DNA from: Gammaproteobacteria bacterium | GTDB taxonomy: Bacteria > Pseudomonadota > Gammaproteobacteria > BMS3Bbin11 | Reading direction: 5' to 3' | NCBI GenBank assembly: GCA_036986095.1 | Contig: BTQX01000001.1 | Span: forward strand, 1-52,459 | DNA: 52,459 nucleotides | Shown here: positions 2,387 to 52,459 of the stretch, piece after piece | Layout: each line of letters opens with the position of its first letter | Position numbering within the stretch: position 1 is the stretch's first letter | The notes under the pieces: model-generated | What the model saw: the letters and a program-made list of their open reading frames with translations, nothing else | Databases searched by the model: none | Told to the model about the DNA's origin: nothing | Translations under genes and position numbers: made by a program

Positions 2387-3397
2387 TTAGTTATTCACCA
2401 TAGAGGTCGTCCTTTTTATTATATCAAGCCTGGGGAGAACGTTCCTCTCCACTGCTTGCCGTATTTCAGCAGTGATAGCTTTTTGTTTATTTTCGAAATC
2501 AGGCAAAAATTCATTTTTTCTTCCATAGGATTTTATGTCTGTCTGGGTTGTTTTCATAACTCGATCGAACTCTGACCCTTCTATACACACATCAAAAAAG
2601 GGAGCAATTTTATCTGGCATTGCATCGGGTAATGACCTGTAGTCCATTAATAGCAGAGACTGTGGTGCATTCAGTATAGACTGACAAATTTCACCAAGTA
2701 CCCGCGAGTAAAGCTCAGTGTTTGAAATATCATCAGAATAATTTACAGACAACAGCATTTTTGAAAACATATCCTTAGATACATTACTATGAATATTTTT
2801 TTTATTATGGGCTAATACCGTATTTATCAGATCTCTGCTCAACCAGGCTGGTGGTTTTCTAAGCATAGATATCATAATTTCGAATGGGTCACGATATAGA
2901 AATATACAAGGCGTAGTAGGGAATGCCATTTGAAATATCTTTACTGCCATTGCATTCCAGCTCGAAAACTTGAAAATAAGCCTTTCACCATCTTTACAAA
3001 GGGATTGCTGATACATACCAATCAGGTTTTGCAACGCTACAACATGGCTACCGTCATCTCCTCGTAATATTTGGAAAAGTTGGCCGATAACCATTGGTTC
3101 TGCAACAACTTTTACCATGGGCAAAGTTCGAAACATTTCTGAAAGTAAGGTCGACCCGCAACGGGACAAATGAAAAATAAATCCAGCTGGCATTGTACTT
3201 TGGTGCGAGAATTTATTTTCTTGCAAAAGAATATCTAGTGGGAGGCGTGCCTTTTGATTACTTCTTTCAAGATCAAACCTTATAAATGCCCCCCTCAGCT
3301 TCTTATCCTGAATATGTGCAAGCTCCAGATAAGGACTACCACTATCCTCCTGACCCATCCGGTCAGGAATCCATCCATCCTTGATTTTAAGTGTCAT
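2387..3397 (-). CDS. Sulfotransferase-family protein (putative)
   Basis: The 336-aa product has a PAPS 5'-phosphosulfate loop-like motif (FHLSRCGSTLLSEMF) and a 3'-phosphate motif-like sequence (FLYRDPFEIMISMLR). The gene is AT-rich, about 37% GC. Confidence 0.5.
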   Translation of the reverse strand: MTLKIKDGWIPDRMGQEDSGSPYLELAHIQDKKLRGAFIRFDLERSNQKARLPLDILLQENKFSHQSTMPAGFIFHLSRCGSTLLSEMFRTLPMVKVVAEPMVIGQLFQILRGDDGSHVVALQNLIGMYQQSLCKDGERLIFKFSSWNAMAVKIFQMAFPTTPCIFLYRDPFEIMISMLRKPPAWLSRDLINTVLAHNKKNIHSNVSKDMFSKMLLSVNYSDDISNTELYSRVLGEICQSILNAPQSLLLMDYRSLPDAMPDKIAPFFDVCIEGSEFDRVMKTTQTDIKSYGRKNEFLPDFENKQKAITAEIRQAVERNVLPRLDIIKRTTSMVNN

Positions 3398-3733
3398 GTA
3401 TTCAAGGAAAAAATTCTAGAAAGGGAAATAAACTTTATTTGCAGGCATATATGTGAATTTATAACACACGTCCAGACAATCTAACAGAGCCATCAAAAAC
3501 AACAAACTGAATATTCAACATAGTATTCTTATCTCTATTTATATATTGAGGCATGAGTAAACATAATGGTAAATGTAAGTCCCCAGATAGACTCACACGA
3601 ATAAAAATTATTATTGAGAATAATAATGATTTAGCGTAGCATTCCGGCCAGACTGACTATTTTTTATTATTCAGTTACCAGTAAATAAGAGCAAATCCAA
3701 CAAGTTTCACTTGAAAAAACAAAGGTATATACC

Positions 3734-4396: not shown

Positions 4397-5614
4397 ATGA
4401 GTATTTTTGGGTTAGCTGGATTACTTAGCCCACTTGATACGGATAAGTTTCTAACCCAGTTCTGGGGGAAGAAAGCTGTACTCATACCTGGCAATTCCGA
4501 GAAATTTTCCAGTATTTTCAACTGGCGCGAAGTGGAAGATGCGCTCAACCTCAGTCGTCAGAACTATAATGGTTTACGCCTGGTGCACGACAAGCAGGGG
4601 CTGCCTCCAACTGCGTTTACTGACCTTCCGGGCTGGCTTAACAAGGGCGCTACGCTAGTCCTCAATAGCGTACAGGAAACAGACCCAGTCCTCGAAAAGC
4701 TTCAGTCGACTCTTTCTCTGGACATGAACACTGCGATTAATATCAATGCCTATGTGTCATACCCGGCTAAACAGGGTTTTGACACGCATTTCGACCGTCA
4801 TGATGTCTTCATTCTACAGACTGAAGGTATAAAAAAATGGCGGGTGTTTAATACAACTGCACCCAATACCTTTCCATTACACCTACAAAGTACTGGCTGC
4901 GATACAGCACCAGCAGACATGGAACCCTATCTGGAGTGTGAAATGTCTGAGGGGGATGTGTTGTATATTCCTCGTGGCCACTGGCATGACGCTATTTCGG
5001 TTACACCATGCGTTCATCTGACAGTGGGACCTAAAACCCGCGCACCCGCTGATTTTCTCACCTGGTTGTTGCCACAAATGGTGAATCAGGATGAGTTTCT
5101 GCGTCAGGACTTTCCCACTACCCAGGCCCGCGAATTGGGGGGCAACCGCGATGAGCCATCATTAACAGACCATATTCAAGAATTCAAACGTCACCTATCT
5201 GACCTGTTTAGTCGCGATTCATTGGACGAAGCTATCATACGTTACTTTATGATATCTAATCCCCGTCGACAGACATTTCAATACCCCGAGATCTGGACAC
5301 TCAATGATATACTGACACGCAACACAAGACTGGAATTTCCTGCAGACCAAAAAGCGATTATCCGCTACGACCCTGAAACTCAGAAAGCCCAGATTTACAT
5401 ACGCGGTCTTGATTTTATATTAAACGGTATATCTGCCGATATGCTGAGCTTCATATTCGAAAACCCCGGTCAGATCTTCACAGCTACAGAGCTAATGAAA
5501 CAACAAACCGATGTAACCTGGGAAAAAACGAAGGAATACCTCCTCCTGCTACTCCAGCGTGGAGTGATCATGGTTCACCGTAACAAAGCCGCAGCGGCTG
5601 CTGCAGTATCCTAG
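4397..5614 (+). CDS. JmjC / cupin-4 family Fe(II)/2-oxoglutarate oxygenase (RoxA/YcfD-like)
   Basis: The 405-aa product has an HxD iron-binding motif in GFDTHFDRHDVFILQTEGIKKWRV and a second His in GDVLYIPRGHWHDA. The length and order match ribosomal-oxygenase-like cupin-4 proteins. Confidence 0.65.
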   Translation: MSIFGLAGLLSPLDTDKFLTQFWGKKAVLIPGNSEKFSSIFNWREVEDALNLSRQNYNGLRLVHDKQGLPPTAFTDLPGWLNKGATLVLNSVQETDPVLEKLQSTLSLDMNTAININAYVSYPAKQGFDTHFDRHDVFILQTEGIKKWRVFNTTAPNTFPLHLQSTGCDTAPADMEPYLECEMSEGDVLYIPRGHWHDAISVTPCVHLTVGPKTRAPADFLTWLLPQMVNQDEFLRQDFPTTQARELGGNRDEPSLTDHIQEFKRHLSDLFSRDSLDEAIIRYFMISNPRRQTFQYPEIWTLNDILTRNTRLEFPADQKAIIRYDPETQKAQIYIRGLDFILNGISADMLSFIFENPGQIFTATELMKQQTDVTWEKTKEYLLLLLQRGVIMVHRNKAAAAAAVS

Positions 5615-5817: not shown

Positions 5818-6065
5818 ATTATGTCAGATACCACGGCAAGCCTGTCGATGATGCGGTAGCGCTTTGGTGGCGACTGGATCTCGTGGTAATCCCTGTGTTT
5901 CCACTCGCCGTGATTTAGTAATTCCTGATGTATCTCACCATTTTTACTGGCAAAACGACTTGCACTGTTTCCACAGACGGCGTAGATTTAGTCGTTCATT
6001 TCAACGAAGTTTCGTTGCAGAAATATCATTCCAAACCAAAAACAGCCTATTATGTCGGGGGTGGC

Positions 6066-7673
6066 ATGAGGGAACACGGCGGGGAAAAATATAGCGATTA
6101 CGGCCTGGAAAACCATGGGCTGCATGGGCTCAATGATATTTACTGGAATCTGCCTACACCAGAACTTTACGAGCAGGCAATCAACCGCCGGGAGGGTGTA
6201 CTAGCTCATCTTGGCCCCCTGGTAGTACGTACGGGTCACCACACAGGACGTTCTGCTAACGACAAATTTGTAGTCGAAGACCAAAACACGATCGACAAAA
6301 TCAACTGGGGCCCTTTAAACCAGCCGATCACCCCTGAAAAATTTGCCGGGCTGCACGAACGCATGGCTACCTACCTGCAAATGAAAGATGTTTATGTGCA
6401 GGATTGTTTCGCTGGTGCAGATCCAAAATACTGTATGCCAGTTCGGATAATCACTGAATATGCATGGCATAGCCTGTTCGCACGCAATATGTTTATTCAG
6501 GGTGAACTGGAACAACTCGGCAGTCATGTGCCGGAATTTACTGTGATCGACCTCCCCCGTTTCCACGCAGACCCGAACATAGATGGCACTAATTCCGAAA
6601 CCTACATCATCATAAACTTTACCAAAAAGTTGGTACTCATTGGTGGCACCAGCTACGCTGGAGAAATCAAGAAATCCATTTTCTCGGTCATGAACTATCT
6701 ATTGCCTGACAAGGATGTACTGCCCATGCACTGCTCCGCCAACATCGGTGCCAACGGAGAAACCGCAATATTTTTTGGGCTCAGCGGTACCGGCAAGACC
6801 ACCTTATCAGCCGACGCGTCCCGCACCTTGATTGGTGATGATGAACATGGCTGGAGTGAAGATGGCATATTTAATTTCGAAGGTGGCTGTTATGCCAAGA
6901 TGATCGATTTGTCTCCAGAGGCCGAACCGGAGATCTACGAAACCACCAGACTCTTTGGCACGGTTCTGGAAAATGTCTCGCTCGACTCCGAGGCGCGTCG
7001 GCTGGATCTGACGGATGACTCATTAACAGAAAACACCCGTGGGGCTTACCCTATCTCACATATTCCCAATGCATCGCGCGATGGAAAGGGTGGACAACCC
7101 AGGAATGTACTGTTTCTCACGGCCGATGCCTTCGGGGTGTTGCCCCCTATATCGAAGCTGACCCCCGAACAGGCAAGTCAACACTTTCTCCTTGGTTACA
7201 CGGCCAAGCTCGCGGGTACCGAGAAAGGCATCACTGAGCCTATACCCAATTTTAGTGCCTGCTATGGCGCTCCGTTTATGCCTTTAGATCCAAGGCGCTA
7301 TTCAGAACTGCTCAATCAGAAAATCAAGAAATATGGTGTCAATGTCTGGCTGATCAACACTGGCTGGAGTGGCGGCGCTTATGGCGTCGGAGAGCGCATC
7401 AGCATCGCCCATACCCGGGCCATGGTCAACGCCGTGCTTGATAACCAACTGGACGATGTACCAACGAAGACTCATCCCATATTTGGATTACACATACCCA
7501 CCTCATGTCCGGGTGTGCCCGATGAAGTACTGGATCCCCGTAATACATGGTCAGATAAAAATGCGTATGATGAGCAAGCCAGGATGCTGGCCGCCGAATT
7601 CAGGAAAAACTTCAGGAAATATGACGAAGATACAGAGGCTAATCAGCATCAAAATAAAAAGGGTCAAGCCTAG
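6066..7673 (+). CDS. pckA: Phosphoenolpyruvate carboxykinase (ATP)
   Basis: It has the kinase-1a motif GLSGTGKTTLS plus HTGRSANDKFVV and IGDDEHGW..GIFNFEGGCYAK. I trimmed the start from the ORF-track 5928 to the ATG at 6066 (MREHGGEKYSDYGLE...), which gives a family-typical length of 535 aa and a purine-rich upstream stretch (GGGGGTGG). Confidence 0.93.
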   Translation: MREHGGEKYSDYGLENHGLHGLNDIYWNLPTPELYEQAINRREGVLAHLGPLVVRTGHHTGRSANDKFVVEDQNTIDKINWGPLNQPITPEKFAGLHERMATYLQMKDVYVQDCFAGADPKYCMPVRIITEYAWHSLFARNMFIQGELEQLGSHVPEFTVIDLPRFHADPNIDGTNSETYIIINFTKKLVLIGGTSYAGEIKKSIFSVMNYLLPDKDVLPMHCSANIGANGETAIFFGLSGTGKTTLSADASRTLIGDDEHGWSEDGIFNFEGGCYAKMIDLSPEAEPEIYETTRLFGTVLENVSLDSEARRLDLTDDSLTENTRGAYPISHIPNASRDGKGGQPRNVLFLTADAFGVLPPISKLTPEQASQHFLLGYTAKLAGTEKGITEPIPNFSACYGAPFMPLDPRRYSELLNQKIKKYGVNVWLINTGWSGGAYGVGERISIAHTRAMVNAVLDNQLDDVPTKTHPIFGLHIPTSCPGVPDEVLDPRNTWSDKNAYDEQARMLAAEFRKNFRKYDEDTEANQHQNKKGQA

Positions 7674-40824: not shown

Positions 40825-41050
40825 AGAGCCTCCTAAGCTGTTGAAATAGTATGATTTTTTAGATAATGTTACGAAGCAAAAAATCACAAACTGATAGTGC
40901 TTGCAAATCAGTATGCATTGATTGCACAATAAAGAATGTCGCCTGCACGACAAACAAACTTATCGCTGTATAAATAATTGTAATAATGGTTCAGAATACA
41001 ATAATAAACTTATAAGGAACCTCTATTTTTTAAGATACGGAAAGTCAAAA

Positions 41051-41788
41051 ATGAAACTAAACGACTCGCCATTACTGTCTCATGAGGATATAGCGCGTAT
41101 TAGTGCAATTACCAGCAGCATGTACAAAAAAGGTGCCTTTGTATTCCAGGCCGGCACGCCTGGAAAAAATATTTATTTATTGAATAAAGGACGCATAAAA
41201 CTGTACCGGCTTTCACCTACCGGCAAGGAAATTACACAGTGGTTTTGCTTCCCAGGTGAAGTATTTGGCCTGGCAGAACTGCCATCAAATAAACAGCGTT
41301 CTATTTATGCGCAGTGTTGCGAAAATTGCGAGGTAACAACAATCCCGCTAAATCAATTTAAGAATCTTCTCGCAACTTCTCCTGAAATCGCCATACAAGT
41401 TATTGAACAACTATCATTACGACTAAAGATTGTCGGCAATACATTACTCAATGTGACGGCTGATGACTCCCGTTCACGCATAATCAAGCTATTAATACGA
41501 CTTAGTAAACGTTTTGGTGTTGAGTGTAATAACGGGATCTTGATTGATGTTGTGCTTACACATAAAGAACTGGCTGACATGGTTGGTACATGTCGACAAA
41601 CGGTAACAACAATGATCGGTGATTTAAAACGTGATGGGTATATAGAGTATGTCAATCACCTGATTGTAATTCACTCCATGTCAGCATTTGAAGCCCTGAC
41701 TATACCGGGACAAACTAATGCACCCATAGTTAATAAAGGACCCGTCCAGTACACCAACCCGGGGTCAGATAGGGGTCTTAACATATAA
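41051..41788 (+). CDS. Crp-family cyclic-nucleotide-binding transcriptional regulator
   Basis: I trimmed the start to the ATG at 41051. It has a cNMP-binding beta-roll (GEVFGLAEL....QRSIYAQC, with the phosphate-binding RS pair) and a C-terminal HTH (HKELADMVGTCRQTVTTMIGDLKRDGYI). There is no FNR-type N-terminal Cys cluster. The last codons run into a GGGGTCAGA REP-like sequence. Confidence 0.8.
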   Translation: MKLNDSPLLSHEDIARISAITSSMYKKGAFVFQAGTPGKNIYLLNKGRIKLYRLSPTGKEITQWFCFPGEVFGLAELPSNKQRSIYAQCCENCEVTTIPLNQFKNLLATSPEIAIQVIEQLSLRLKIVGNTLLNVTADDSRSRIIKLLIRLSKRFGVECNNGILIDVVLTHKELADMVGTCRQTVTTMIGDLKRDGYIEYVNHLIVIHSMSAFEALTIPGQTNAPIVNKGPVQYTNPGSDRGLNI

Positions 41789-41917
41789 AGTACATTACTA
41801 AAGTAGGAAACCATGTCTATTTAACGAAATGCCCACAACGGATTAAACACAAATACCTACAAAAAAGTCCGTAAAAATCTCAACAAGGCCGCATCGTATA
41901 TTACAGGTTAGGTTTTA

Positions 41918-42631
41918 ATGATTAAACAACCACTACTTCTGATTTTTCCCGTTTTAACCCTTGCCCTACTGATTCCTGTGTCAGCAGTTTTCTCCCAGCC
42001 GGTGCTGGCTGAAAATTTTACCCTGCAAGGTAGTTTGAAAATATATAAGAAAGGAGGGAAGAAGACACTAAGGCGTTTTGACAACGCGTTGGTCTATTTG
42101 GAAGGAATTTCGGCCTCAGTTCCCGAACAGCTAGCCGAAGTTGATCAACGCAAGAAGAAATTTAATCCAAGATTGTTGCCCGTCGTTCAAGGCCAGGTAG
42201 TGCGTTTTTATAATTGGGATAAGGTGGAGCATAACGTATTCAGTACTGAAGAAAAAAATAGCTTTGATCTTGGTAGATACCCAAAAGCGGACTTCCGTGA
42301 CCGGCCCTATATGGATCCGGGTTTGTACAAAATATACTGCAATATACACAAGGCGATGATTCTTGATATCCTGGTTGTTCCCAGCCGATATTATGCCGTG
42401 ACAGATAAAAAAGGTGAGTATCAGATTAAAAATGTACCTGCTGGCGAGTATACCTTGAAGGCATGGCATATATATGGCGGTTCGGCCGAGCTTCCGATAG
42501 CAGTAAAGCAGGACACAAATTTTGAAGAGATAATATTGAATAGTACCCGAGTAGTTCACGATATAAAGAATCATATGAATAAATTTGGAAAAAAATATAA
42601 AAATTCAGGCAGCCGTTATCGCGGAAAATAA
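41918..42631 (+). CDS. Secreted cupredoxin-like protein with a type-1-copper-like ligand set plus a CarboxypepD_reg-like domain
   Basis: The 237-aa product has a signal peptide. The candidate ligands are His in VEHNVFS and C-x2-H-x2-M in YCNIHKAM, which is amicyanin-type spacing. The C-terminal segment TDKKGEYQIKNVPAGEYTLKAW is typical of carboxypeptidase-regulatory-like beta-sandwiches. Confidence 0.6.
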   Translation: MIKQPLLLIFPVLTLALLIPVSAVFSQPVLAENFTLQGSLKIYKKGGKKTLRRFDNALVYLEGISASVPEQLAEVDQRKKKFNPRLLPVVQGQVVRFYNWDKVEHNVFSTEEKNSFDLGRYPKADFRDRPYMDPGLYKIYCNIHKAMILDILVVPSRYYAVTDKKGEYQIKNVPAGEYTLKAWHIYGGSAELPIAVKQDTNFEEIILNSTRVVHDIKNHMNKFGKKYKNSGSRYRGK

Positions 42632-42633
42632 AC

Positions 42634-44598
42634 ATGTTGTTCTCCTTCCGCTACAAATTGTCGTTAATAATTTTTTTGGTAGCCTTGTTGATACTTTTCA
42701 TGGCTTTTTTTGCGATTGAAAACGTTCTTGAAAAAGAATTTCGTCTGGTAATTGAACAGCGCCTGCAACAAGCACAGGATGTTGTTAATCAACTTATGGA
42801 AGATCGATTTGATCGTTTGTTAATTCAGGCAGTAACCGTAGCAGACAATAAATTAACCCAGGATATACTTACTGATAAAAACCTTAGTACGGTAACGCGG
42901 GATGACATAGCTCGCGACGAAATACTGCCAACTTTACAAGCCGACTCTATGTTGATTACTGATGGCGATGGTAAGTTACTGGCAGAAACCTTCGAGCATG
43001 ACCCTCTCTGGGGAAAATTAAAAACGCAGCCGGCTTTTGAAGACGGTATAGCTGGTGAAGAAGTAGCGGGTATCATTTTCTTTGAAGGTACATTATTACA
43101 GTGGCTATTGTTGCCAGTCTATATTGATCATTTGATGTTTGGCACGGTAATTCTGGTTAGTACTTTGGGGGCGCAGGAATTACAGACGATTAGTCAGCTG
43201 ACCGGCACAGAATTATTAATTTCCTCCGACAATGAATTCCTTGCAACAGGCTGGCAAAAGCAGAAGGCTGCCAGGAGTGTGCATAGCCCATCATCCAAAG
43301 ATCAGCTTAGCTTTAGTGATTTGGAAAAAAATACTCAAGCAGGTCTTTATAAAGGCCAGTCTACAACCGAGGTAAATCTGCTTGGTGAACGTTATTTATT
43401 GCGTTTCAACGTGCCGAAAAATGCATTTACTCCCACCTATGTGGTCGCTCAGTCACTGGATCGCGCGCTGGCTTTTGTTGAAACGATCAAACAGGTGATG
43501 CTAATTATTGGTTTGATTGCTTTGATCATCGCCGGAGGTTTAGGGTTTGTAATTGCTTGTACTGTGTCGAGACCAATACGACTATTAAGTAAAGCCAACC
43601 GTGCAGTTGCGAAGGAGGATTTTAGCCAACGAGTGGATATACAGACCCGGGATGAATTTCATGAACTGGGTGAGTCATTTAATCATATGACTGAGTCGCT
43701 GGCGGAGAAAGCGAAAATACGTCTGGCGCTGGACAAGACCGTATCCAGAGAAGTGGCAGATCATCTGATGAAGCAGGGGGTGCAGCTGGGAGGAGAGAGC
43801 CGCGAGGTGACTATTTTATTTGCAGATATAAACGATTTCACATCATTGAGTGAGCGCTTATCAGAACAACAGTTATTAAACCTTTTAAACTCATATTTCA
43901 CACGTATTAATTCCTGCATACCGCAGTATCACGGGACTATAGACAAATATATCGGCGATGCTGTCATGGTATTGTTTGGAGCTCCGGTAAATGATGCGCT
44001 GCATGCTCTCCATGCAATTCAGGCTGCTCACGCAATATGGAATACGGTGCGGAAGTTTAATGAAGAAGTCAGCGAACAATTTGGGTGTAAGCTTGATATC
44101 GGTATCGGCATTAACAGTGGACAGGTATTGTCCGGTTTGATGGGTTCGGAAGACCGAATGAGCTATACGGTGCTGGGTGATCACGTCAATATTGCTTCTC
44201 GTGTGGAAGGTTTAAGCAAGCTCTACGGTGCGCGCATAATTGTCACTGATGAAACCAGGAAATTGGCTATACAGCAGGCTGGTCGGGATTATACCTACGT
44301 GTATCGTCGTCTTGATAATGTTCAGGTAAAGGGAAAAACTGTAGGCATCAATATTTACCAACCTATATATGAAAGAGATGAGGTAGATAAAAAACTGCAA
44401 GCTTATAATAGGGCATATGATTTTATCCTGAAGCACGAATTCAGGAAGGCGATGGCTGAATTTGAAAATTACATAAATTCGTGGCCACATGACAAAGTAG
44501 TGAATCTATGGTTTGAGCGCTGTAAATTGTATGCAGAGAAAATAGAAGCATTTGAACTGGATTACCGTGATGGAGTGCGGATTCTAAATACAAAATAA
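42634..44598 (+). CDS. Membrane sensor class III adenylate cyclase (periplasmic domain, TM, HAMP, cyclase)
   Basis: The 654-aa product has two TM segments flanking a roughly 270-aa periplasmic domain. It has a HAMP domain (SRPIRLLSKANRAVAKEDFSQRV) and a cyclase core (VTILFADINDFTSLSE, GTIDKYIGDAVMVLFGAP with the adenine-specifying Lys, and YTVLGDHVNIASRVEG). Its start codon lies 2 nt after the cupredoxin stop. Confidence 0.85.
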   Translation: MLFSFRYKLSLIIFLVALLILFMAFFAIENVLEKEFRLVIEQRLQQAQDVVNQLMEDRFDRLLIQAVTVADNKLTQDILTDKNLSTVTRDDIARDEILPTLQADSMLITDGDGKLLAETFEHDPLWGKLKTQPAFEDGIAGEEVAGIIFFEGTLLQWLLLPVYIDHLMFGTVILVSTLGAQELQTISQLTGTELLISSDNEFLATGWQKQKAARSVHSPSSKDQLSFSDLEKNTQAGLYKGQSTTEVNLLGERYLLRFNVPKNAFTPTYVVAQSLDRALAFVETIKQVMLIIGLIALIIAGGLGFVIACTVSRPIRLLSKANRAVAKEDFSQRVDIQTRDEFHELGESFNHMTESLAEKAKIRLALDKTVSREVADHLMKQGVQLGGESREVTILFADINDFTSLSERLSEQQLLNLLNSYFTRINSCIPQYHGTIDKYIGDAVMVLFGAPVNDALHALHAIQAAHAIWNTVRKFNEEVSEQFGCKLDIGIGINSGQVLSGLMGSEDRMSYTVLGDHVNIASRVEGLSKLYGARIIVTDETRKLAIQQAGRDYTYVYRRLDNVQVKGKTVGINIYQPIYERDEVDKKLQAYNRAYDFILKHEFRKAMAEFENYINSWPHDKVVNLWFERCKLYAEKIEAFELDYRDGVRILNTK

Positions 44599-44616: not shown

Positions 44617-47154
44617 TCAATCAACATGGAAATGGCGTATTACTCTATCCATTGACTCTCGGTAAGCAGCAGGTAAATTGCGGTAGAGATTTTTTTCTGT
44701 TCTTTGTGAAATATTTGTACGGATAGAGCTAAGATAGCGATGGATCTTGGAATTAATGCGGGCATGAATTACCCTGTCCTGGCTTCCGGCAAGCCAGTTA
44801 ATTGCCTGATCAATGTCACAGTCATTATCTGCCAGAGCCAGCAGGCACAGGCCGCGCAGGTGATTGGAAAGAGTACGTGATTTATGGCTATAGCCAAGTT
44901 CGGCTTCAGCCGGCTTGATGCGAAAGGCATGCTTACGAAGTATTAGCAATTCTTGCGGCAGATCAGATGAGTCCACAGCAGCGCCATCCAACGGTCTTAG
45001 ATCAGCAGAAGCATTGCTAGCGGGACCAGTCCTGATTGGGGTTGCCACACTGGTATCTCTGGTGGTTGAAAGATAACCTGCACGTAGAATATTATCATCC
45101 TCCAGCATTGCCTTACCAATAGCCGAACGTATTTCCGATTTAAGCTCACGGGCATTTCCTGTCATATACTTTTTACGTGTAAGCAGGTTCATAGCACGGG
45201 GCGAGACGATGGAAACTTCATGCGACATTTCAATACTGAGCACTTTTGTGAAATGTTCAATCAGTATCGGAATATCTTCGATACGGTCACGTAACGGTGG
45301 CAGGTAGACCCTGGCGCCTAGCCGCGCAAGTACATCACTGCGTAATTCGCCTGAACTGATGAGGCTGACAGGGTCGCGATTGGTGGCAAGGATAAATTTG
45401 ATGTTGACGGTCATGCCAGGGCCGCTGCCTATGCCGGGTTCAAACGGGCGACCTTCGAGTGGATATAGCAGCAAATCCTGAACAGAGAGCGGCAGACGAT
45501 CAAAATCGTCCAGCACCAGTGTTCCACCATCGCATTCCTGTAGCAGGCCAGGGCTTCCTTCTTTAGCAACATTTGTCAGACCGTGGCCGATGCCAATTCC
45601 AAAAATTCTTCCCAAAGCGAATGCCGGGTCAGCGTGTTCAAACTGCGCACAGCTGATTGTTTTGTAGGAATTATCATGGTTAGGCCCAAGACGATGAATG
45701 GCCCATGCAATATCTGTTTTGCCTGTTCCAGATTCGCCGACAATCATTACGGGAGTCATATTATGTGCCGCAAGTACGGTTTGTTTAAAAATCTCTTCCC
45801 ATAAAGGGCTAGCTCCCAGCAGGCGCTCTCGGCGTATATCTGTAAGTTCAGGGTAGCGATGTTCCAGTCGAGTCAGTCCGGAAGTTGTGTTGCTATCGTT
45901 AGTGACCTCACCTGATTCCTGTTGGCGATAGTCATCCAGAGAGCTACGCAGTTCAGATATCTCACTGCTCAGGGTATGAATACGCACATCCCTGTTTTTT
46001 ACCATGTTGCGCTCTCTATCAAGTTGGGCTTCCAGCAAATGCAGGCGCCCTCGGATGATGCCGCGTATACCAAGCAGTTCGTGATTGAGGATAGACATAG
46101 TCAGTGCAAGAGGTATCAACGCAATAGGGCCGAACAACCAGCTGTAGCTCGGTACCAGCGGCGTACCAGTCATCAGTATGGGTAAATTCCACAATAAAAT
46201 GTGTACAAAGGCTACCACGATGAATGCGCCTACGATCCAGCGTGTTCTTGCACGTTGCACAGGGTTTGTACTGTGATGATAAGTGCTGGCCATGAAAAAG
46301 GTGATCAGTATGAGCAGGGCTGTGTTAAGTAACAGCCTGGGTTCATAAACCGCAATTATGCGCTGAAGATTGTCACCCTGACTTGTCATCATAACTAGAA
46401 ACGGGGTACCCAGCGAAATTACGTATATAGTAGTAACTAGCCAGGGGTAGCGCAGCACCAGGGAATGTCTCTCAGGAAAGACCAGGGCGATATGCAGCAA
46501 GCTTGCCATCGCAACCTGTAACGATAAGGCCTCGGTGAAGGCGTTGAAAATAAGGGATTCGAACGCAATCCCTCGAATAAGCGGCGACATAAATATTGGC
46601 CACTGGGGATCCAGGCTGGCAAGCCAGAGTATCGCGGCAGAGAAGCACACTCCAATCAGAAAGGCCGATGCATCGCGCGACCTGGCCAGAATGATTGATA
46701 TGATAAGTATGCTAAGAAATACCAGTAGACTGAATCTGGCCCAATTGTAGTTCCAGACTTCAGCGCCATTTAATGGGCGCGACGTGATTTCCAGCTTAAT
46801 GGGCATACCGTTGCGTAGAAATTCAAATCCTGCCGGTTGTTCGCGCCATTTGGAGCGTTCTGTTACATAGCGACTTCTGTTCTCCCGGTTCAGTTTCAGC
46901 CAGTCCTCAATTTTGCGATCGTCTATTGCCAATAAAGGATCGCCTACTCTGACGCCGGCCAGTTCAGCAGGGCTTGATGGGTAGACCTCATTAACCACAG
47001 CAGATTCGCCGCTTACCTGTGTACCAAAACCAATTATGTAGGTGTTTAGCGCAGCCGGTACACGTATGAACACCAGATAAATAAAGATTAACGCCAGCAG
47101 AACTGTTAGCGCAGAGGTTGTTGCGCGTTGATTAGCCAGCGAGCCAAATTTCAC
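44617..47154 (-). CDS. Membrane-embedded PDZ-domain AAA+ regulator related to sigma-54 enhancer-binding proteins, with a degenerate GAFTGA motif
   Basis: The 845-aa product uses a GTG start. In order it has a TM segment, a PDZ domain (VVNEVYPSSPAELAGVRVGDPLLAIDDRKI), about seven TM helices and a coiled coil. The AAA+ domain has Walker A (VGESGTGKT) and Walker B (GGTLVLDDFDRL), plus ILATNRD and PPLRDRIEDIP. The C-terminal region is helical. Confidence 0.7.
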   Translation of the reverse strand: MKFGSLANQRATTSALTVLLALIFIYLVFIRVPAALNTYIIGFGTQVSGESAVVNEVYPSSPAELAGVRVGDPLLAIDDRKIEDWLKLNRENRSRYVTERSKWREQPAGFEFLRNGMPIKLEITSRPLNGAEVWNYNWARFSLLVFLSILIISIILARSRDASAFLIGVCFSAAILWLASLDPQWPIFMSPLIRGIAFESLIFNAFTEALSLQVAMASLLHIALVFPERHSLVLRYPWLVTTIYVISLGTPFLVMMTSQGDNLQRIIAVYEPRLLLNTALLILITFFMASTYHHSTNPVQRARTRWIVGAFIVVAFVHILLWNLPILMTGTPLVPSYSWLFGPIALIPLALTMSILNHELLGIRGIIRGRLHLLEAQLDRERNMVKNRDVRIHTLSSEISELRSSLDDYRQQESGEVTNDSNTTSGLTRLEHRYPELTDIRRERLLGASPLWEEIFKQTVLAAHNMTPVMIVGESGTGKTDIAWAIHRLGPNHDNSYKTISCAQFEHADPAFALGRIFGIGIGHGLTNVAKEGSPGLLQECDGGTLVLDDFDRLPLSVQDLLLYPLEGRPFEPGIGSGPGMTVNIKFILATNRDPVSLISSGELRSDVLARLGARVYLPPLRDRIEDIPILIEHFTKVLSIEMSHEVSIVSPRAMNLLTRKKYMTGNARELKSEIRSAIGKAMLEDDNILRAGYLSTTRDTSVATPIRTGPASNASADLRPLDGAAVDSSDLPQELLILRKHAFRIKPAEAELGYSHKSRTLSNHLRGLCLLALADNDCDIDQAINWLAGSQDRVIHARINSKIHRYLSSIRTNISQRTEKNLYRNLPAAYRESMDRVIRHFHVD

Positions 47155-47273
47155 ACTTCACCACACATTTATTCTCACACATTCTGCACAATATTAAACA
47201 CATACTTCACACATAAACGCAAGCGTGTTTTTGTAAGTAATTGAAATATATAACAAAAAATATTCATATTTTA

Positions 47274-47290
47274 TTGGCACGTAAATTGGA
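47274..47290 (+). promoter_or_regulatory. Candidate sigma-54 (-24/-12) promoter TTGGCACGTAAATTGGA
   Basis: It matches YTGGCACG-N4-TTGCW except that the -12 GC is GG. It lies 68 bp upstream of the ATG at 47358, in the divergent intergenic region next to the AAA+ regulator gene. It is the only intergenic TGGCAC-N5-TTG match I found by eye. Confidence 0.4.
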
Positions 47291-47357
47291 ACAAGTGAAG
47301 TGACGGTGCATAAAAGAATGTTCCTGAATGTACACGCAAAGCCAATAGGAGGTTGTT

Positions 47358-47876
47358 ATGAAAGATTCAAGTTTACGTAAGAAGATGATAAAGGGGTTAA
47401 TAGTCAGTTATGTCTCTGTACTGGGGGTCGTCCCCAGCCTGGCAGGCGCAGATGGCTCTACTCAGATGCTCCAGTTTGAACTGACTTTTGGAAATAAGAA
47501 ACCGGTCAGCAACTTCTATATGTCTGTGCGACCTACTGGAATGGCGACAGTAGATGAAGCAGACACCGATACTCAGTCCATGATTCGAATGCCTGTATTT
47601 TCTACTGACAGATCCCGGGTGACGATGTTGAATCCGTTGCCAATGTTCTATGCCAATGAGGGTGGATCTTCAACAGAAGGTGATGGAGATCGCAGTACTG
47701 CGCAAAAAACAGGCAGTGTATTGGCCGGGGCCATTTTAGTAGTCGGATCTGTAGCAGCTATTGCCTGGGCAGCCGCTGAATTTAGTCATTCTTTTGATGA
47801 TATTTGTAATGAAGGATGTGTTGGCCCCATCGATATTCCAGATCTGTCCATATTAGATCCAAATACAGGTTCATGA
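47358..47876 (+). CDS. Small secreted protein with a C-proximal TM anchor, hypothetical
   Basis: The 172-aa product follows a strong SD (AGGAGG). It has the signal peptide ...VSVLGVVPSLAGA, an acidic Gly/Ser/Thr-rich linker and the TM segment GSVLAGAILVVGSVAAIAWAAA. The tail ends ...DLSILDPNTGS. Confidence 0.5.
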   Translation: MKDSSLRKKMIKGLIVSYVSVLGVVPSLAGADGSTQMLQFELTFGNKKPVSNFYMSVRPTGMATVDEADTDTQSMIRMPVFSTDRSRVTMLNPLPMFYANEGGSSTEGDGDRSTAQKTGSVLAGAILVVGSVAAIAWAAAEFSHSFDDICNEGCVGPIDIPDLSILDPNTGS

Positions 47877-47932
47877 GTGCACGCGCTTTACCAGCGCGGT
47901 CACTTTTCATTAAGTAAGCAAAGGAGATAACC

Positions 47933-48403
47933 ATGAAACTTAGCAACAGTAAGTTAAACAGCAATAAACCAGGTATACGGACACAAATCAGAAGCGTAGT
48001 CGTGTTATTGGGCACCCTTTCGCTGCTCGGCACAGGTGTTGCGTCCGCCGGGGGTTTTACACAAGTAAAGCCGTTCGAATATTCCACCAGCAACAGCGAA
48101 TCACTGACCAGTCTGTATGGACAGTGGGAGCCACTTGAAAGTCAGCAGAAAAGTATCTCGGAAACGCTTTCGAGCAACCCATTTGTTCCATCCCTGATTC
48201 CACATCTTAGTGCGAATAGCCAGACATCACTCAAGCTGCGCACATTTTCAATGCTGGATCCGAATGGATATTACCGCGTGTCTTCACTTGAGGATGGAAT
48301 TCCATCAGATGAGAAGGAGACAGCAACTTCATTCCTCGGGGTGGTGGTTTTAGTTGGATACCTGGCCTTCGAGGCGGCAATAACAATGAGAAGCAATAAA
48401 TAG
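47933..48403 (+). CDS. Small secreted protein with a C-terminal TM anchor and basic end, hypothetical
   Basis: The 156-aa product follows the SD GGAGA. It has the signal peptide ...LLGTGVASA, a Ser-rich body containing FSMLDPNG, and a C-terminal TM segment (SFLGVVVLVGYLAFEAAI) followed by TMRSNK. Confidence 0.5.
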   Translation: MKLSNSKLNSNKPGIRTQIRSVVVLLGTLSLLGTGVASAGGFTQVKPFEYSTSNSESLTSLYGQWEPLESQQKSISETLSSNPFVPSLIPHLSANSQTSLKLRTFSMLDPNGYYRVSSLEDGIPSDEKETATSFLGVVVLVGYLAFEAAITMRSNK

Positions 48404-48521
48404 CTCCTGATATCGGTATGTTCATCTTTTTAAGGCCAGACTCCCCCCATTGGGTTTGGGGGAATCTGGATAAGGAAAAAGTCCAGGCGGCAAGGTAAAA
48501 AACATTCAGAAGGAATCCAAA

Positions 48522-49592
48522 ATGAGTATGAAAAAAATAGAAAGATTCGCGGTGTTAACCATCATATCTTTGACGATTATGGGATGTTCCACACCGGCAA
48601 CCCGTACCACAGGAACCAGTGAGCAGGATGTCGATGCTGAAACACTCAAACAGCTCGAAATTCGACTGGCTACAGACCTTCGTGAACATGACCGGGTGAT
48701 GGCGGTAGCATATCCGCTATTGAAGTCTGCTGTTCCTATTTGTGATGACGATGCTATCCCATCAATCGGTTTAACGCCTTCTAATCTGTATACCCTCAGT
48801 AAGGATGTCAGACAGGTTGCTGTCAGATTGTATGATATAGATGATCAGCTGCAAGTAATGATTGTCCACCCAGGGTCGCCAGCCGATAAAGCAGGTTTGA
48901 TGCGTGGTGATAAGTTACTATCTCTTAACGAACAGCCTGTCATCACCGGGGAGGACGCGGCTAAGAAATGGTATGAGCAACTCAAAAAGGTCCTGGAAGT
49001 CAGTAACAGCTTAACGCTGACCATCAGCCGAAATGGTGAACAGTCTCAGCTTACTCTTAATGCTGAGAAAGTATGCGGATATTCAGTCGCTGAGACCTAT
49101 AGCGACACGGTAAATGCCTTTGCTGATGGAAAGAATATTGTGTTATCAGCAGGCATGCTGCGCTTTGCACAAAATGATAATGAGCTTGCACTGGTGATCT
49201 CCCACGAGATAGCACATAACGCCATGGACCATATGGAAGCAAAAAGATCTAATTATACTTCTGGGACATTACTTGATATTGCCGCAGCACTGGCAGGCGT
49301 TAATACAGGCGGGGCATTTGGTAGAATTGCAGCAGGAGTTTATTCGAAAGGTTTTGAATCTGAAGCTGACTATGTCGGCCTTTATATCATGGCGCTGGCC
49401 GATGTTCCAATTGAAGACGCACCTAAATTCTGGCGTCGAATGGCTGCTACTCATCCGGAGAGTGCAGGCAAAGGAGGTTTTCTTGCCTCCCACCCTGCAA
49501 CTTCGGAGCGATTTGTGGCACTGGAAAATACAATTGAAGAGATACATCAAAAGCAGGCCAGTGGCGTTCTTTTGACCCCAAACATGAAATAA
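48522..49592 (+). CDS. M48-family zinc metallopeptidase lipoprotein with an inserted PDZ domain
   Basis: The 356-aa product has a lipobox-like LTIMGC and a PDZ domain (VMIVHPGSPADKAGLMRGDKLLSLNEQPV). It has the HExxH motif in VISHEIAHNAMDH, a downstream E (FESEADYVGL) and the C-terminal SHPATSERF typical of LoiP/YcaL-like M48 enzymes. Confidence 0.75.
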   Translation: MSMKKIERFAVLTIISLTIMGCSTPATRTTGTSEQDVDAETLKQLEIRLATDLREHDRVMAVAYPLLKSAVPICDDDAIPSIGLTPSNLYTLSKDVRQVAVRLYDIDDQLQVMIVHPGSPADKAGLMRGDKLLSLNEQPVITGEDAAKKWYEQLKKVLEVSNSLTLTISRNGEQSQLTLNAEKVCGYSVAETYSDTVNAFADGKNIVLSAGMLRFAQNDNELALVISHEIAHNAMDHMEAKRSNYTSGTLLDIAAALAGVNTGGAFGRIAAGVYSKGFESEADYVGLYIMALADVPIEDAPKFWRRMAATHPESAGKGGFLASHPATSERFVALENTIEEIHQKQASGVLLTPNMK

Positions 49593-49606
49593 AGGAGTAG
49601 ATCAAA

Positions 49607-51226
49607 ATGGCTATCGAAGAACTGAAGTTCAAGATTGCTAACACATGCTCTGAGATGGATGCAATACATGGCTTGAATTATCGAACGTTTGTCGAAGAGA
49701 TTCCTCAACATCAGGACAATCCACAGCAGAAACTTATTGATAAATTTCATGACGAAAACACATACATTATCTGCATGAAGGGAAAAGACATTGCAGGTAT
49801 GCTGGCTCTTCGAGATTCGCGTCCTTTTTCTCTGGACGCAAAACTCGAAAATCTTGATTCCTATCTTCCTGCATACCGATCAATTTGTGAAATAAGACTT
49901 CTTGCCGTTGAAAAAAAGTATCGCAATACAGCGATATTTATCGGCTTGTTAAACAAAGCATTTGATTTTGCCATGCAGCAGGCATATGACCTATGTGTGA
50001 TATCTGGAACTACTCGACAGATAAAGCTCTATAAACACATTGGTCTAAAACAATTTGGCCCATTGGTAGGTACTGAGAATGCAAGATATCAACCTATGTA
50101 TATATCTATTAAAGATGCCATGGCATTTAGAGACAGGTCGCACGCAATGAATATAAACAGTAAGACTATGTCAACATTAATTAACTGTCTACCGGGGCCT
50201 GTATCACTATCAGAAGGTGTCGTTAGTGCATTTGTATCGGAGCCTGTGTCACATCGTAGTGAATGTTTTATTGAAAGGTTCAACGAGGTTCGAGAAAAAC
50301 TGTGTCACCTGACAAGTGCACGAAAGGTAAACATTATGACGGGTTCCGGCACACTCGCTAATGACGTTGTTGCAAGTCAGCTCTCATCGTTGAAAGGAAA
50401 AGGTTTAATACTTGTGAATGGTGAATTTGGGAACCGGCTTGTGGAGCATGCTTCTCGTGCTGGCTTAGTCTATGATCTCCTCCAGACACCTGGTGGTAAA
50501 AGCTATAAAAGAAATGAATTGGAAAAACAAATGCAAGAACAGGGCGCATACTCCTGGCTCTGGTGCGTTCATTGTGAGACATCAACGGGTGTTATTAATG
50601 ATGCTGGTTTACTCAAAGACGTTTGTCAAAGACATAAAATAAAATTGTGCCTCGATTGTATAAGTACTGTTGGTTCATGTGAGGTCGATCTGAATGATGT
50701 TTATCTTGCATCAGCGACTAGTGGAAAGGGTATCGGGTCGTTACCCGGCCTTGCCATGATCTTTTCCGATCATTGTGCTACATCATGTAATAAGCAATTA
50801 CCACGTTATTTTGATTTGTCTTTATATGAAGGAAACCAGGGCATTCCTTTCACAATTTCATCAAATGCTGTGTATGCACTGGAAGCTGCTCTGATACAGA
50901 CGAACTGGCCAGAACGATTCAGGCTGGTGGAGAATTTATCTCGTCAGCTATACTGTCAACTTGATCTACTAGGACTGCAAATTCTCGCTGATCCAGAACA
51001 TCGTGCTTTGCATGTAACAAGCATCCTATTGCCTGATGGAGTTTCATCACTGGAGTTTGGCGATTTTCTAGCTAGTCAGGGCATATTTCTCAGTTATCGG
51101 AGCCAGTATCTTATCAGTCAGAACTGTGTGCAGATCTGTTTTATGGGCAATCTTCTGTTAGATTACAAGAATCTCTATGAGGCTTTACAACATGCTCTTG
51201 TACAAATAAGAAAAAGTGCTGCATAA
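49607..51226 (+). CDS. Fusion protein: an N-acyltransferase-like GNAT domain joined to a class V (PhnW/AGXT-like) PLP aminotransferase
   Basis: The 539-aa product has an N-terminal region of about 175 aa resembling N-acyl amino acid synthase/OlsB-type GNATs (LNYRTFVEEI...EIRLLAVEKKYRN). The C-terminal region of about 360 aa has the class V pattern (PGPVSLSE, GSGTLANDVV, HCETSTGVIND, and the PLP Lys in ASATSGKGIGSLPGLA). Confidence 0.65.
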   Translation: MAIEELKFKIANTCSEMDAIHGLNYRTFVEEIPQHQDNPQQKLIDKFHDENTYIICMKGKDIAGMLALRDSRPFSLDAKLENLDSYLPAYRSICEIRLLAVEKKYRNTAIFIGLLNKAFDFAMQQAYDLCVISGTTRQIKLYKHIGLKQFGPLVGTENARYQPMYISIKDAMAFRDRSHAMNINSKTMSTLINCLPGPVSLSEGVVSAFVSEPVSHRSECFIERFNEVREKLCHLTSARKVNIMTGSGTLANDVVASQLSSLKGKGLILVNGEFGNRLVEHASRAGLVYDLLQTPGGKSYKRNELEKQMQEQGAYSWLWCVHCETSTGVINDAGLLKDVCQRHKIKLCLDCISTVGSCEVDLNDVYLASATSGKGIGSLPGLAMIFSDHCATSCNKQLPRYFDLSLYEGNQGIPFTISSNAVYALEAALIQTNWPERFRLVENLSRQLYCQLDLLGLQILADPEHRALHVTSILLPDGVSSLEFGDFLASQGIFLSYRSQYLISQNCVQICFMGNLLLDYKNLYEALQHALVQIRKSAA

Positions 51227-51289
51227 CCCTTCAGTGCACCCTTGAATTCAAGGCCTCTATTAATTCTTGAATCATCAATGTTATAGAAT

Positions 51290-52459
51290 ATGCAAACTTA
51301 TTTATGCACTCTGAGTAAAAGAGAAAAGTGGACGATAGATAAATATCTGGCAAAATATTCCGAAATCGAATCAAAGTGGCTGGCGTCAAAGATACCTACA
51401 GAGAGTTGGGATTATGTGGTTACTATTCCTGCCTGTGGAGAAGATAAATTTCTGCCAGCGGCACTGGATTCGATTAATAGCTGCGCTATAGCTAGAAGCA
51501 ATAAAAGGGTTCTTTGTATCGTCGTTCTGAATGGCAACGAGTCACGAGAAGATGAATTCAGAACATCCAATCAGAGAATGCGCACCTGGTTCAGTGAACA
51601 CTGTAAAGTAAAAACCACCTCTCTTAATCCTGCTGAAACCTGCCCGCAGACACTTGTCTCATGGCAGAATATCGAGATCCTGATTGCTGATCGCTCAAAA
51701 GAACCATGGTTGATCCCAGCAGATCAGGGAATAGGGCTGGCTCGCAAGATTGGGGCAGATATTGCCCTGTTTTTGATCAACGCGGGTAAGATTCGCGACC
51801 CCTGGATTCATACCACTGATGCCGATGCCAGGGTACCTGATGATTATTTCCTGAGGACGAATGAACTGCCCTCCACATCAGAGGATATGCCAAAGCTGAC
51901 TAAGCCCCCAGGCTGCTTTATTTACCCATACCAACATATCCCGGATGTGGATATGGCTCAGCAGGAGCATGATCGATACTGGCCCGCGCTGGCTGAATAT
52001 GAACTATGGCTGCGTTATTATGTGGCGGGCCTGAAATGGGCAGGATCCAGCTATGCACACCCCTCAATTGGCAGCCTGCTGGCCTTTGATGCACTGGCCT
52101 ATGCGAGAACCCGTGGTTTTCCAAAGCGCAAGGCGGGAGAAGATTTTTATTTCCAGAACAAGTTATCCAAGGTGGGGGTGATGATCACACTGGAGGGAAA
52201 GCCAATAAGGCTGCTAACCCGGCCATCGACCAGGGTGCCCTTTGGTACCGGACAGGGCACAATCAGGATCGATCAACTAAATGAAGCAGGGAATATCTAC
52301 GAGGTTTATCACCCACAGGTGTTTGATTTTCTGAAAGCGTTTCTTTCCGCTGTACGATATTGGCTACAGGACTCAGGTATGGATGATGACGAAAGACGGT
52401 TGGTCTTTATTTCATCAATCGAGAAGTATTTACCTGCATCAAAGCAGAATGATTGTGAT
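51290..52459 (+). CDS. GT2-like glycosyltransferase, 3'-truncated by the window edge
   Basis: It is an open frame from the ATG at 51290 to the window end (390 codons, hand-translated, no stops). It is absent from the ORF track, presumably because it has no stop in the window. Motifs include VVTIPACGEDKFLPAALDSI, the DxD-like HTTDADARVP and KAGEDFYFQNKLSK. Confidence 0.6.
   Translation, partial: MQTYLCTLSKREKWTIDKYLAKYSEIESKWLASKIPTESWDYVVTIPACGEDKFLPAALDSINSCAIARSNKRVLCIVVLNGNESREDEFRTSNQRMRTWFSEHCKVKTTSLNPAETCPQTLVSWQNIEILIADRSKEPWLIPADQGIGLARKIGADIALFLINAGKIRDPWIHTTDADARVPDDYFLRTNELPSTSEDMPKLTKPPGCFIYPYQHIPDVDMAQQEHDRYWPALAEYELWLRYYVAGLKWAGSSYAHPSIGSLLAFDALAYARTRGFPKRKAGEDFYFQNKLSKVGVMITLEGKPIRLLTRPSTRVPFGTGQGTIRIDQLNEAGNIYEVYHPQVFDFLKAFLSAVRYWLQDSGMDDDERRLVFISSIEKYLPASKQNDCD

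Follow-up and report, generated by a model that had tools for sequence, protein, structure and literature searches.

Do the six genes at the right-hand end of a gammaproteobacterial contig constitute a single envelope system, or does a smaller regulatory unit stand there among unrelated neighbors? The DNA in question, referred to below as the window, is the entire 52,459-bp contig of a gammaproteobacterial metagenome-assembled genome (MAG). Near its end, the gene for a membrane regulator (REG) diverges from a string of genes encoding two small proteins (SM1 and SM2), an M48 peptidase with a PDZ domain (PDZ-M48), a fusion of a GNAT domain with a class V aminotransferase, and a glycosyltransferase-like (GT-like) protein. 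The original prediction had joined all six genes, together with a sigma-54-like promoter, into one module, and each of these elements is indeed present, according to the open reading frame (ORF) calls and, for REG, PDZ-M48 and the fusion, to Pfam. Here, we propose, with a probability of roughly 0.6, that the locus encodes a one-component envelope-to-transcription switch, in which REG drives SM1, SM2 and PDZ-M48, and that the two right-hand genes are passengers.

The domain composition of REG was analyzed by Pfam searches and structural modeling. REG matched PDZ_6/PDZ_2 (residues 41-122), Sigma54_activat (PF00158; 95 bits against a cutoff of 20.2) and AAA_lid_14 (PF25601; 39 bits). AlphaFold2 (AF2) models built on family alignments reached a predicted local distance difference test (pLDDT) value of 77.7 for the full length and 86.3 for residues 1-420, and contained eight transmembrane (TM) helices, from which a periplasmic PDZ domain and a cytoplasmic AAA+ domain follow. 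The models show REG as an inner-membrane protein, with a predicted periplasmic DegS-like PDZ domain between TM1 and TM2 and a predicted cytoplasmic AAA+ domain of the sigma-54 type. In Foldseek searches, the PDZ domain retrieved those of DegS, DegQ, AlgW and CtpA, and the AAA+ domain retrieved LuxO, NtrC1, FlrC and PspF at a target-normalized TM-score of about 0.75, with VpsR and NtrX also among its matches. REG has about 45 full-length homologues, 42-91% identical, and all those with a named source come from gammaproteobacterial MAGs. The carboxylate-binding-loop motif IGF is kept in most family members, and a nearly invariant ELG-SHKSRTLSNHLRG segment lies within the confidently modeled helical C-terminal domain. 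Two other interpretations of the TM region were rejected. Similarity of the 7TM bundle to G protein-coupled receptors was weak in Foldseek (query-normalized TM-score about 0.3) and was taken as shared topology. As to an intramembrane protease, conserved H, N or E motifs were sought and no known motif was recognized, and the homology with kinase sensors argues to the contrary. By its domain organization, REG would be an undescribed membrane-embedded form of sigma-54 activator, i.e. a one-component, membrane-integral enhancer-binding protein (EBP); no relevant description of PDZ-containing, transmembrane or membrane-anchored EBPs was found in the literature searched, the coverage of which was incomplete.

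The N-terminal half of REG is not peculiar to transcriptional activators. A search with residues 1-420 against 1.8 billion representative proteins yielded 443 matches, and 86 of the best 145 span the 7TM region. Among 65 homologous N-terminal modules scanned with Pfam, 36 belong to histidine kinases (29 of them HisKA_3), eight to sigma-54 AAA+ proteins, and four to GAF-SpoIIE phosphatases. Since the homologues are mostly histidine kinases, with a few SpoIIE phosphatases, this half can be considered a general sensor module, of which REG is, judging by domain content, the EBP version. No Pfam 7TM model recognizes the PDZ-7TM module in REG; HisKA_7TM (PF16927) matched one of the 65 modules (E=6e-9) and did not match REG itself.

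The chief argument in favor of a sigma-54 mechanism is a conserved -24/-12-type element in the region between REG and its divergent neighbor. The original prediction had rightly recognized a sigma-54-like promoter here and had placed it near 47300; the element sits slightly further upstream, at 47275-47289. It is the sole promoter match of the window that is preceded by a cluster of CACAC sites, and this cluster, the first site of which overlaps the GTG start codon of REG, is likewise the sole one in the 52-kb window. In the upstream regions of REG homologues, the pattern TGGCA-N7-TG was matched on the strand of the divergent gene in 20 of 22 cases, typically as TGGCACG-N4-TTG[A/G/C]; about 40-80 bp (mostly 55-78) separate it from the last of the 3-6 co-oriented CACAC sites that lie upstream. 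The background frequency of the pattern in REG loci overall is 0.136 per kb, and about 0.01 matches would be expected per region. CACAC spacings of 9 bp and 25 bp recur in about half of the units. With a composite unit defined as at least three CACAC sites within 140 nt upstream of a promoter match, both strands of the window and of the 29 REG loci examined contain 24 units, all adjoining REG and none elsewhere. This conserved cis arrangement can be read as the phylogenetic footprint of a regulator-operator-promoter unit, from which we infer binding and activation by REG, the CACAC array being a putative upstream activating sequence.

Some loci deviate from the simple layout. Locus L088 has two units (about 2950-3090 and 3500-3640), the second of which precedes a GDSL lipase gene and the first a degenerate-looking ORF. 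In L086, the CACAC cluster and promoter (about 5980-6110) precede the GDSL lipase gene, and a smaller CACAC pair without a matching promoter lies near REG. L098 possesses an extra unit (about 4930-5050) before an SM1 homologue. L095 and L100 have no promoter match upstream of REG; L100 retains the CACAC cluster, and in L095 a composite unit occurs at 3517, on the downstream side of REG and before small ORFs.

The genes downstream of the promoter were compared across the REG loci; in GC-rich loci, where naive ORF calls are unreliable, targets were assigned only if confirmed by Pfam. The promoter is followed by SM1, SM2 and PDZ-M48 in the window and L082/L083, by SM2 and PDZ-M48 in L081 and L093, by an SM1 homologue in L085 and L094 (and then by a GDSL lipase in L085), by a GDSL lipase in L086 and L088, by a DctP/TAtT TRAP transporter in L087, L101/L102, L103 and L106, and by a FAD_binding_4 oxidase in L096, L099 and L111. 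SM1 homologues detectable by BLAST lie under REG-type promoters in L082/L083, L085, L094 and L098; in the last of these, the homologue is clear (E=1e-8), lies across REG from the divergent gene and has a promoter unit to itself. The divergent position in L097 and L098 is occupied by a protein that may be distantly SM1-like (17-19% identity, uncertain homology). SM2 homologues were found solely in the clade whose REG identity is 71% or more (L081, L082/L083, L093). PDZ-M48 follows in every locus of the window's clade (the window, L081, L082/L083 and L093; REG 71-91% identical) and is absent beside REG homologues of 51% identity or less, where other genes are driven. As judged from gene order and promoter sequence, the conserved unit is REG, the sigma-54 promoter and the SM proteins, to which PDZ-M48 is added in close relatives. 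The pairing of a PDZ regulator with small anchored proteins, as originally proposed, therefore recurs across loci, and the gene-order conservation envisaged for the whole string extends to REG, the promoter and the SM proteins, plus PDZ-M48 in the window's clade; the fusion and the GT-like gene are found elsewhere.

The proteins of this unit have the envelope features assigned to them at the outset. Each small protein has a signal-like N-terminus with an AXA-type site (LAGA before D in SM1, VASA before G in SM2) and a single C-terminal TM segment by hydropathy. In SM1, a conserved domain of ~90 aa (LxQYExxFG...PLxST) on the periplasmic side is followed by an acidic/Gly linker, the TM segment and a short cytoplasmic tail that contains Cys; SM2 combines a conserved domain with the signature GGFxQVKPFEYxTxxSESLTSLY and a TM anchor at its C-terminus. 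Neither protein matched any Pfam or NCBIfam model, including those for PspA/B/C or sorting signals. No sortase-type gene is consistently linked in the REG loci, and one rhomboid gene was seen near REG, in L085 only. With their C-termini predicted to lie in the cytoplasm, SM1 and SM2 are unlikely to be direct ligands of periplasmic PDZ domains unless they are first cleaved. Between the window and L082, identity amounts to 58% for SM1, 51% for SM2, 91% for REG and 86% for M48, with the divergence of the SM proteins located mostly in the linker, TM segment and tail. By this sequence comparison, SM1 and SM2 are evolving much faster than REG or M48.

The third product, PDZ-M48, was likewise described correctly as a lipoprotein zinc peptidase with a PDZ domain: it matched Peptidase_M48 (PF01435) at 72.4 bits (cutoff 20.3) downstream of an N-terminal PDZ domain, and has HEIAH and downstream ESEAD motifs and a lipobox-like TIMGC. 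In common with BepA and LoiP it has the HExxH-containing M48 fold, a location in the periplasm or as a lipoprotein, and an accessory domain for protein binding, which in the window protein is an N-terminal PDZ rather than a TPR; its scores lie far under the cutoffs of the respective NCBIfam equivalogs (51.5 against 570 for BepA, 25.6 against 365 for LoiP). Two hairpins punctuate this part of the string. The one after SM1, which is GC-rich and followed by a T-rich stretch, is a possible partial terminator or attenuator. In the gap between SM2 and M48, a strong hairpin with another stem sequence and no U-tract also occurs in L081 and L082, so that its position is conserved across three lineages.

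The right-hand genes present a different picture. The fusion of GNAT and class V aminotransferase domains is as originally stated, with Pfam matches to FeeM (37.7 bits, cutoff 27), the GNAT family Acetyltransf_5, and Aminotran_5 (37.2 bits, cutoff 21.5). For the aminotransferase half, the best NCBIfam models were those of PhnW-AepZ, with a PhnW score of 137 against a cutoff of 361. The protein thus shares its domains with FeeM N-acyl amino acid synthases and with PhnW-AGXT aminotransferases, but differs from both in fusing them. Such fusions occur in at least 593 GTDB species of many phyla, e.g. Verrucomicrobiota, Kiritimatiellota, Planctomycetota, Acidobacteriota, Chloroflexota, Desulfobacterota and Gammaproteobacteria; a literature search for a GNAT::aminotransferase fusion returned nothing. 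In 59 of 80 fusion loci (L001-L080, flanks up to 10 kb), a PlsY-type acyltransferase gene (~226 aa; PF02660, E=6e-37) is located immediately upstream on the same strand. This usual partner is missing in the window. The 80 loci were also searched by BLAST with all window proteins, and none contained a homologue of M48, SM1, SM2 or the GT-like protein, even at E<0.01; conservation of the six-gene arrangement was rejected on this ground.

The last ORF of the string exists as predicted, and its designation as GT2-like is not upheld by Pfam, the match to Glyco_trans_2_3 reaching 16.9 bits (E=0.006) against a cutoff of 27. A GT-A-like fold is plausible, because a TDADA motif is visible. The family has more than 6000 matches; the 120 listed carry no functional annotation or precomputed Pfam domain, and close relatives are 480-490 aa long. 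In three distinct gammaproteobacterial relatives (four loci, L089-L092; 64-75% identical), a DsbA-like gene always precedes the GT-like gene, which is followed by DUF4124, DUF4743/NUDIX and PurT, and neither REG nor M48 nor the fusion is nearby. In view of this different conserved neighborhood, the GT-like gene was rejected as a member of the operon. L082/L083 do carry a GT-like gene after M48, but its identity is 59-62%, compared with 91% for REG. In the slot that separates this gene from M48 (518-1788 in L082, 577-1847 in L083) are the N-terminal fragment (96 aa) of a FeeM-like GNAT and a class I/II aminotransferase broken into ORFs of 231 aa and 91 aa. The break is the same in two independent metagenomes, and the slot contains either a pseudogene in decay or genes that have replaced the window's fusion without being orthologous to it. 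Because of the lower identity of the GT-like copy and the different content of this slot, the right-hand part of the string has its own history. In L081, unrelated genes come after M48.

These observations bear directly on the six-gene module, in which peptidase and regulator would act on the SM proteins, and the acyl-aminotransferase and the glycosyltransferase would modify a surface product, as a system of proteolysis-coupled signaling or surface modification. The genes of the string are co-directional and tightly spaced (gaps of 56, 118, 14 and 63 bp from SM1 to the GT-like ORF). The 14-bp gap between M48 and the fusion contains an AAGGAG ribosome-binding site, no strong terminator is present, and by this spacing the fusion is probably co-transcribed with M48 in this genome; moreover, the slot in L082/L083 also holds a GNAT-like fragment and an aminotransferase, though of another class. 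Against such a module stand the 80 fusion loci with their PlsY-like partner, the separate context of the GT-like gene in its relatives, the unrelated genes after M48 in L081, and the discordant identities in L082, which make it very improbable in our estimation. Co-localization in other genomes, the measure that the original prediction had set for itself, is lacking for the fusion and the GT-like gene; by that measure the module of six genes does not stand up, and what remains is a smaller regulatory unit, to which these two genes, as unrelated neighbors, do not belong.

For the remaining unit, we propose the following order of events. REG would sense a periplasmic or membrane cue through its PDZ-7TM module, and the coiled coil would relay the signal, whereupon the AAA+ domains would assemble at the CACAC array, bound by the C-terminal domain, and activate the sigma-54 promoter. 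The output would comprise SM1, SM2 and PDZ-M48, with the transcript probably reading through into the fusion gene; the hairpins after SM1 and after SM2 would probably lower distal expression, favoring the small proteins. Since the promoter lies before these three genes, the product of the switch would be two small anchored envelope proteins and a periplasmic metalloprotease. We read the switch as an envelope maintenance or remodeling response, its layout being like that of pspF and pspABC and its sensing like that of DegS.

Several points weigh against this proposal. The main argument contrary to a standard sigma-54 mechanism is the altered AAA+ domain of REG. Contact with sigma-54 region I is made by the conserved GAFTGA motif (PMC7057263). 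When aligned to ZraR and NtrC1, its counterpart in the window reads G(H)GLTN(V)A, and the REG family reads GHGL(P/T)NV, with Phe replaced by Leu, Thr mostly replaced by Pro, and a loop longer by 2 residues. In the Walker B motif, LVLDD, the usual DE is replaced by DD, with Asp in place of the catalytic Glu, in 23 of 23 aligned members (window 45505-45513, residues 548-550). Furthermore, the -12 element in REG loci is mostly TTGA or TTGG instead of TTGC, and hence non-canonical. The putative DNA-binding domain at the C-terminus has no match to the Pfam model HTH_8 (PF02954), and no precedent was found for a membrane-tethered hexamer that reaches both the enhancer and RNA polymerase. Finally, as the regulons differ between clades, a role in envelope stress can be read from the window's clade alone. 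The family-wide changes in GAFTGA and Walker B, and the presence of VpsR and NtrX among the structural matches, would suit a regulator of the kind of TyrR, VpsR or NtrX, EBP relatives with no working GAFTGA, which binds the CACAC array and either regulates a sigma-70 promoter or represses. However, Walker A (GESGTGKT), the arginine fingers (LRSDVLARL) and sensor II (GNAREL) are kept and conserved in the family, TGGCAC-N5-TTG recurs at a similar distance from the array far above the expectation given above, the sole intergenic sigma-70-like match is weak (9/12), and the region 47000-52459 has eight sigma-70-like matches compared with a shuffled mean of 11.3. We thus regard a REG that is independent of sigma-54 as unlikely. 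A more specific version of the switch is put forward tentatively, at less than even odds: REG may represent an undescribed class of integral-membrane sigma-54 activators, in which a kinase-type PDZ-7TM receptor is fused to an AAA+ domain with a re-engineered GHGL(P/T)NV loop and DD, and which would form the open complex at the membrane, on promoters with an atypical -12 element (TTGA/TTGG), via a contact other than GAFTGA.

Two further alternatives concern the control of REG itself. In a negative feedback of the Cpx/Psp type, SM1 (and SM2) would inhibit REG or co-sense through its PDZ/7TM part, and PDZ-M48 would degrade them to relieve or reset the response. SM1 is the most recurrent REG target across clades, the divergent layout mirrors that of cpxP with cpxRA and of pspF with pspA, and both small proteins are membrane-anchored with periplasmic domains and diverge faster than REG and M48. 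Such feedback is nevertheless rather doubtful, as neither SM1 nor SM2 is encoded near many of the REG homologues, which drive transporters or enzymes instead, and M48-PDZ is restricted to one clade. Alternatively, regulated proteolysis of the RseP or ToxR/TcpP type could free the cytoplasmic AAA+/DNA-binding part of REG as the active fragment. This would solve the geometry of a membrane-tethered hexamer, and a low-confidence hinge in the AF2 model (residues 359-368, between TM8 and the coiled coil) would offer a place for it; yet none of the examined loci links REG with a site-2 protease or another intramembrane protease, and the same sensor module serves histidine kinases, which signal uncleaved. 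Release by cleavage is extremely unlikely in our judgment.

The proposed switch resembles several known systems, each in part. In the phage-shock system PspF/pspABCDE, too, the gene for an EBP that lacks a receiver domain diverges from a sigma-54 operon of small membrane-associated envelope proteins, with activator sites in the shared intergenic region; PspF is also the best NCBIfam match of the REG AAA+ domain (E=1e-34). In contrast to PspF, which is soluble and controlled by PspA, REG has eight TM helices and its own PDZ-7TM sensor, its GAFTGA motif and Walker B Glu are altered, and the SM proteins match no PspA/B/C model. With DegS and AlgW, the PDZ stress sensors of the sigma-E pathway, REG shares a periplasmic HtrA-type PDZ domain tethered by an N-terminal TM helix, but it has no protease domain, and its predicted output is direct ATP-dependent activation of transcription, without a proteolytic cascade; no RseP/S2P or anti-sigma gene was found in the window region or the REG loci. 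7TM-receptor histidine kinases (HisKA_7TM; 7TMR-DISM-type) have the same order of extracytoplasmic domain, 7-TM bundle and cytoplasmic output, and the homologues of the N-terminal half of REG are mostly HisKA_3/HATPase_c kinases. Unlike these, REG can be called one-component, because its output is a sigma-54 AAA+ domain with a putative DNA-binding domain. ToxR and CadC are also inner-membrane DNA-binding regulators that couple periplasmic sensing directly to a promoter, as predicted for REG, but they are single-pass, OmpR-type, sigma-70-dependent proteins with N-terminal DNA-binding domains, whereas REG is polytopic, with AAA+ and a C-terminal putative DNA-binding domain. NCBIfam returned sub-threshold generic matches alone and placed none of the proteins of the string in a named equivalog, and PADLOC returned generic RtcR/PspF AAA+ similarity and nothing else. 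The original impression that the combination is unlike described systems is thereby borne out, within the incomplete literature coverage mentioned above.

The coordinates of the genes, cis elements and REG domains are collected in Table 1. Elsewhere, the window has the gene content of an ordinary chromosome (PEPCK, NfeD, a PAS-GGDEF-EAL protein and a Cus-type RND pump), and no rpoN was found among its ten largest ORFs scanned. On the other side of REG, positions 40922-44598 hold three genes. The first (40922-41788) encodes a regulator of the Crp family, the second (41918-42631) a secreted, CarboxypepD_reg-like protein of 237 aa, and the third (42634-44598), which converges on REG, a membrane HAMP-adenylate/guanylate cyclase in which CHASE4 is weakly matched; the three are a possible cyclic nucleotide monophosphate signaling trio. 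The HAMP-cyclase also adjoins REG in L082/L083 (87% identical).

Table 1. Genes, cis elements and REG domains of the locus (nucleotide positions refer to the window; residues refer to REG)
Feature	Position	Strand	Basis	Remarks
REG	44617-47154	minus	ORF call	845 aa, GTG start
CACAC sites, four in the same orientation	47152-47212	plus	read from sequence	sites at 47152, 47162, 47176, 47208; consensus about tTCACACaTTT
Sigma-54-type promoter	47275-47289	plus		TGGCACGTAAATTGG; -24 GG, -12 TTGG; 83 bp upstream of SM1 start codon
SM1	47358-47876	plus	ORF call	172 aa
GC-rich hairpin, then T-rich stretch	47882-47898	plus		directly 3' of SM1 stop codon
SM2	47933-48403	plus	ORF call	156 aa
Hairpin, 12-bp stem, no U-tract	48436-48469	plus		between SM2 and M48
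PDZ-M48 lipoprotein	48522-49592	plus	ORF call, Pfam	
GNAT::class V aminotransferase fusion	49607-51226	plus	ORF call, Pfam	
GT-like ORF	51290-52459	plus	ORF call	ATG at 51290; truncated by window end
REG TM1	residues 9-36		AF2	
REG PDZ	residues 43-123		AF2, Pfam	
REG 7-TM bundle	residues 130-360		AF2	TM2-TM8
REG coiled coil	residues 363-414		AF2	long helix
REG AAA+	about residues 445-690		AF2, Pfam	
REG disordered linker	residues 698-730		AF2	
REG C-terminal helical domain	residues 734-844		AF2, family alignment	putative DNA-binding

For annotation, it follows that the six genes should not be carried as a single system: the fusion and its PlsY-like partner point to an uncharacterized, widespread lipid-type pathway, and the GT-like gene belongs to a separate large family. 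The analysis also defines a PDZ-7TM sensor module common to histidine kinases, PP2C phosphatases and EBPs. The main interest of the locus lies in a membrane-integral activator with a non-GAFTGA loop. If the proposal is true, a polytopic membrane protein could drive sigma-54 activation with no two-component relay in between, and the "invariant" GAFTGA contact would be replaceable, both of which would bear on how AAA+ rings engage sigma-54. The REG family would then be a natural setting in which to ask whether loop L1 co-varies with the -12 promoter region.

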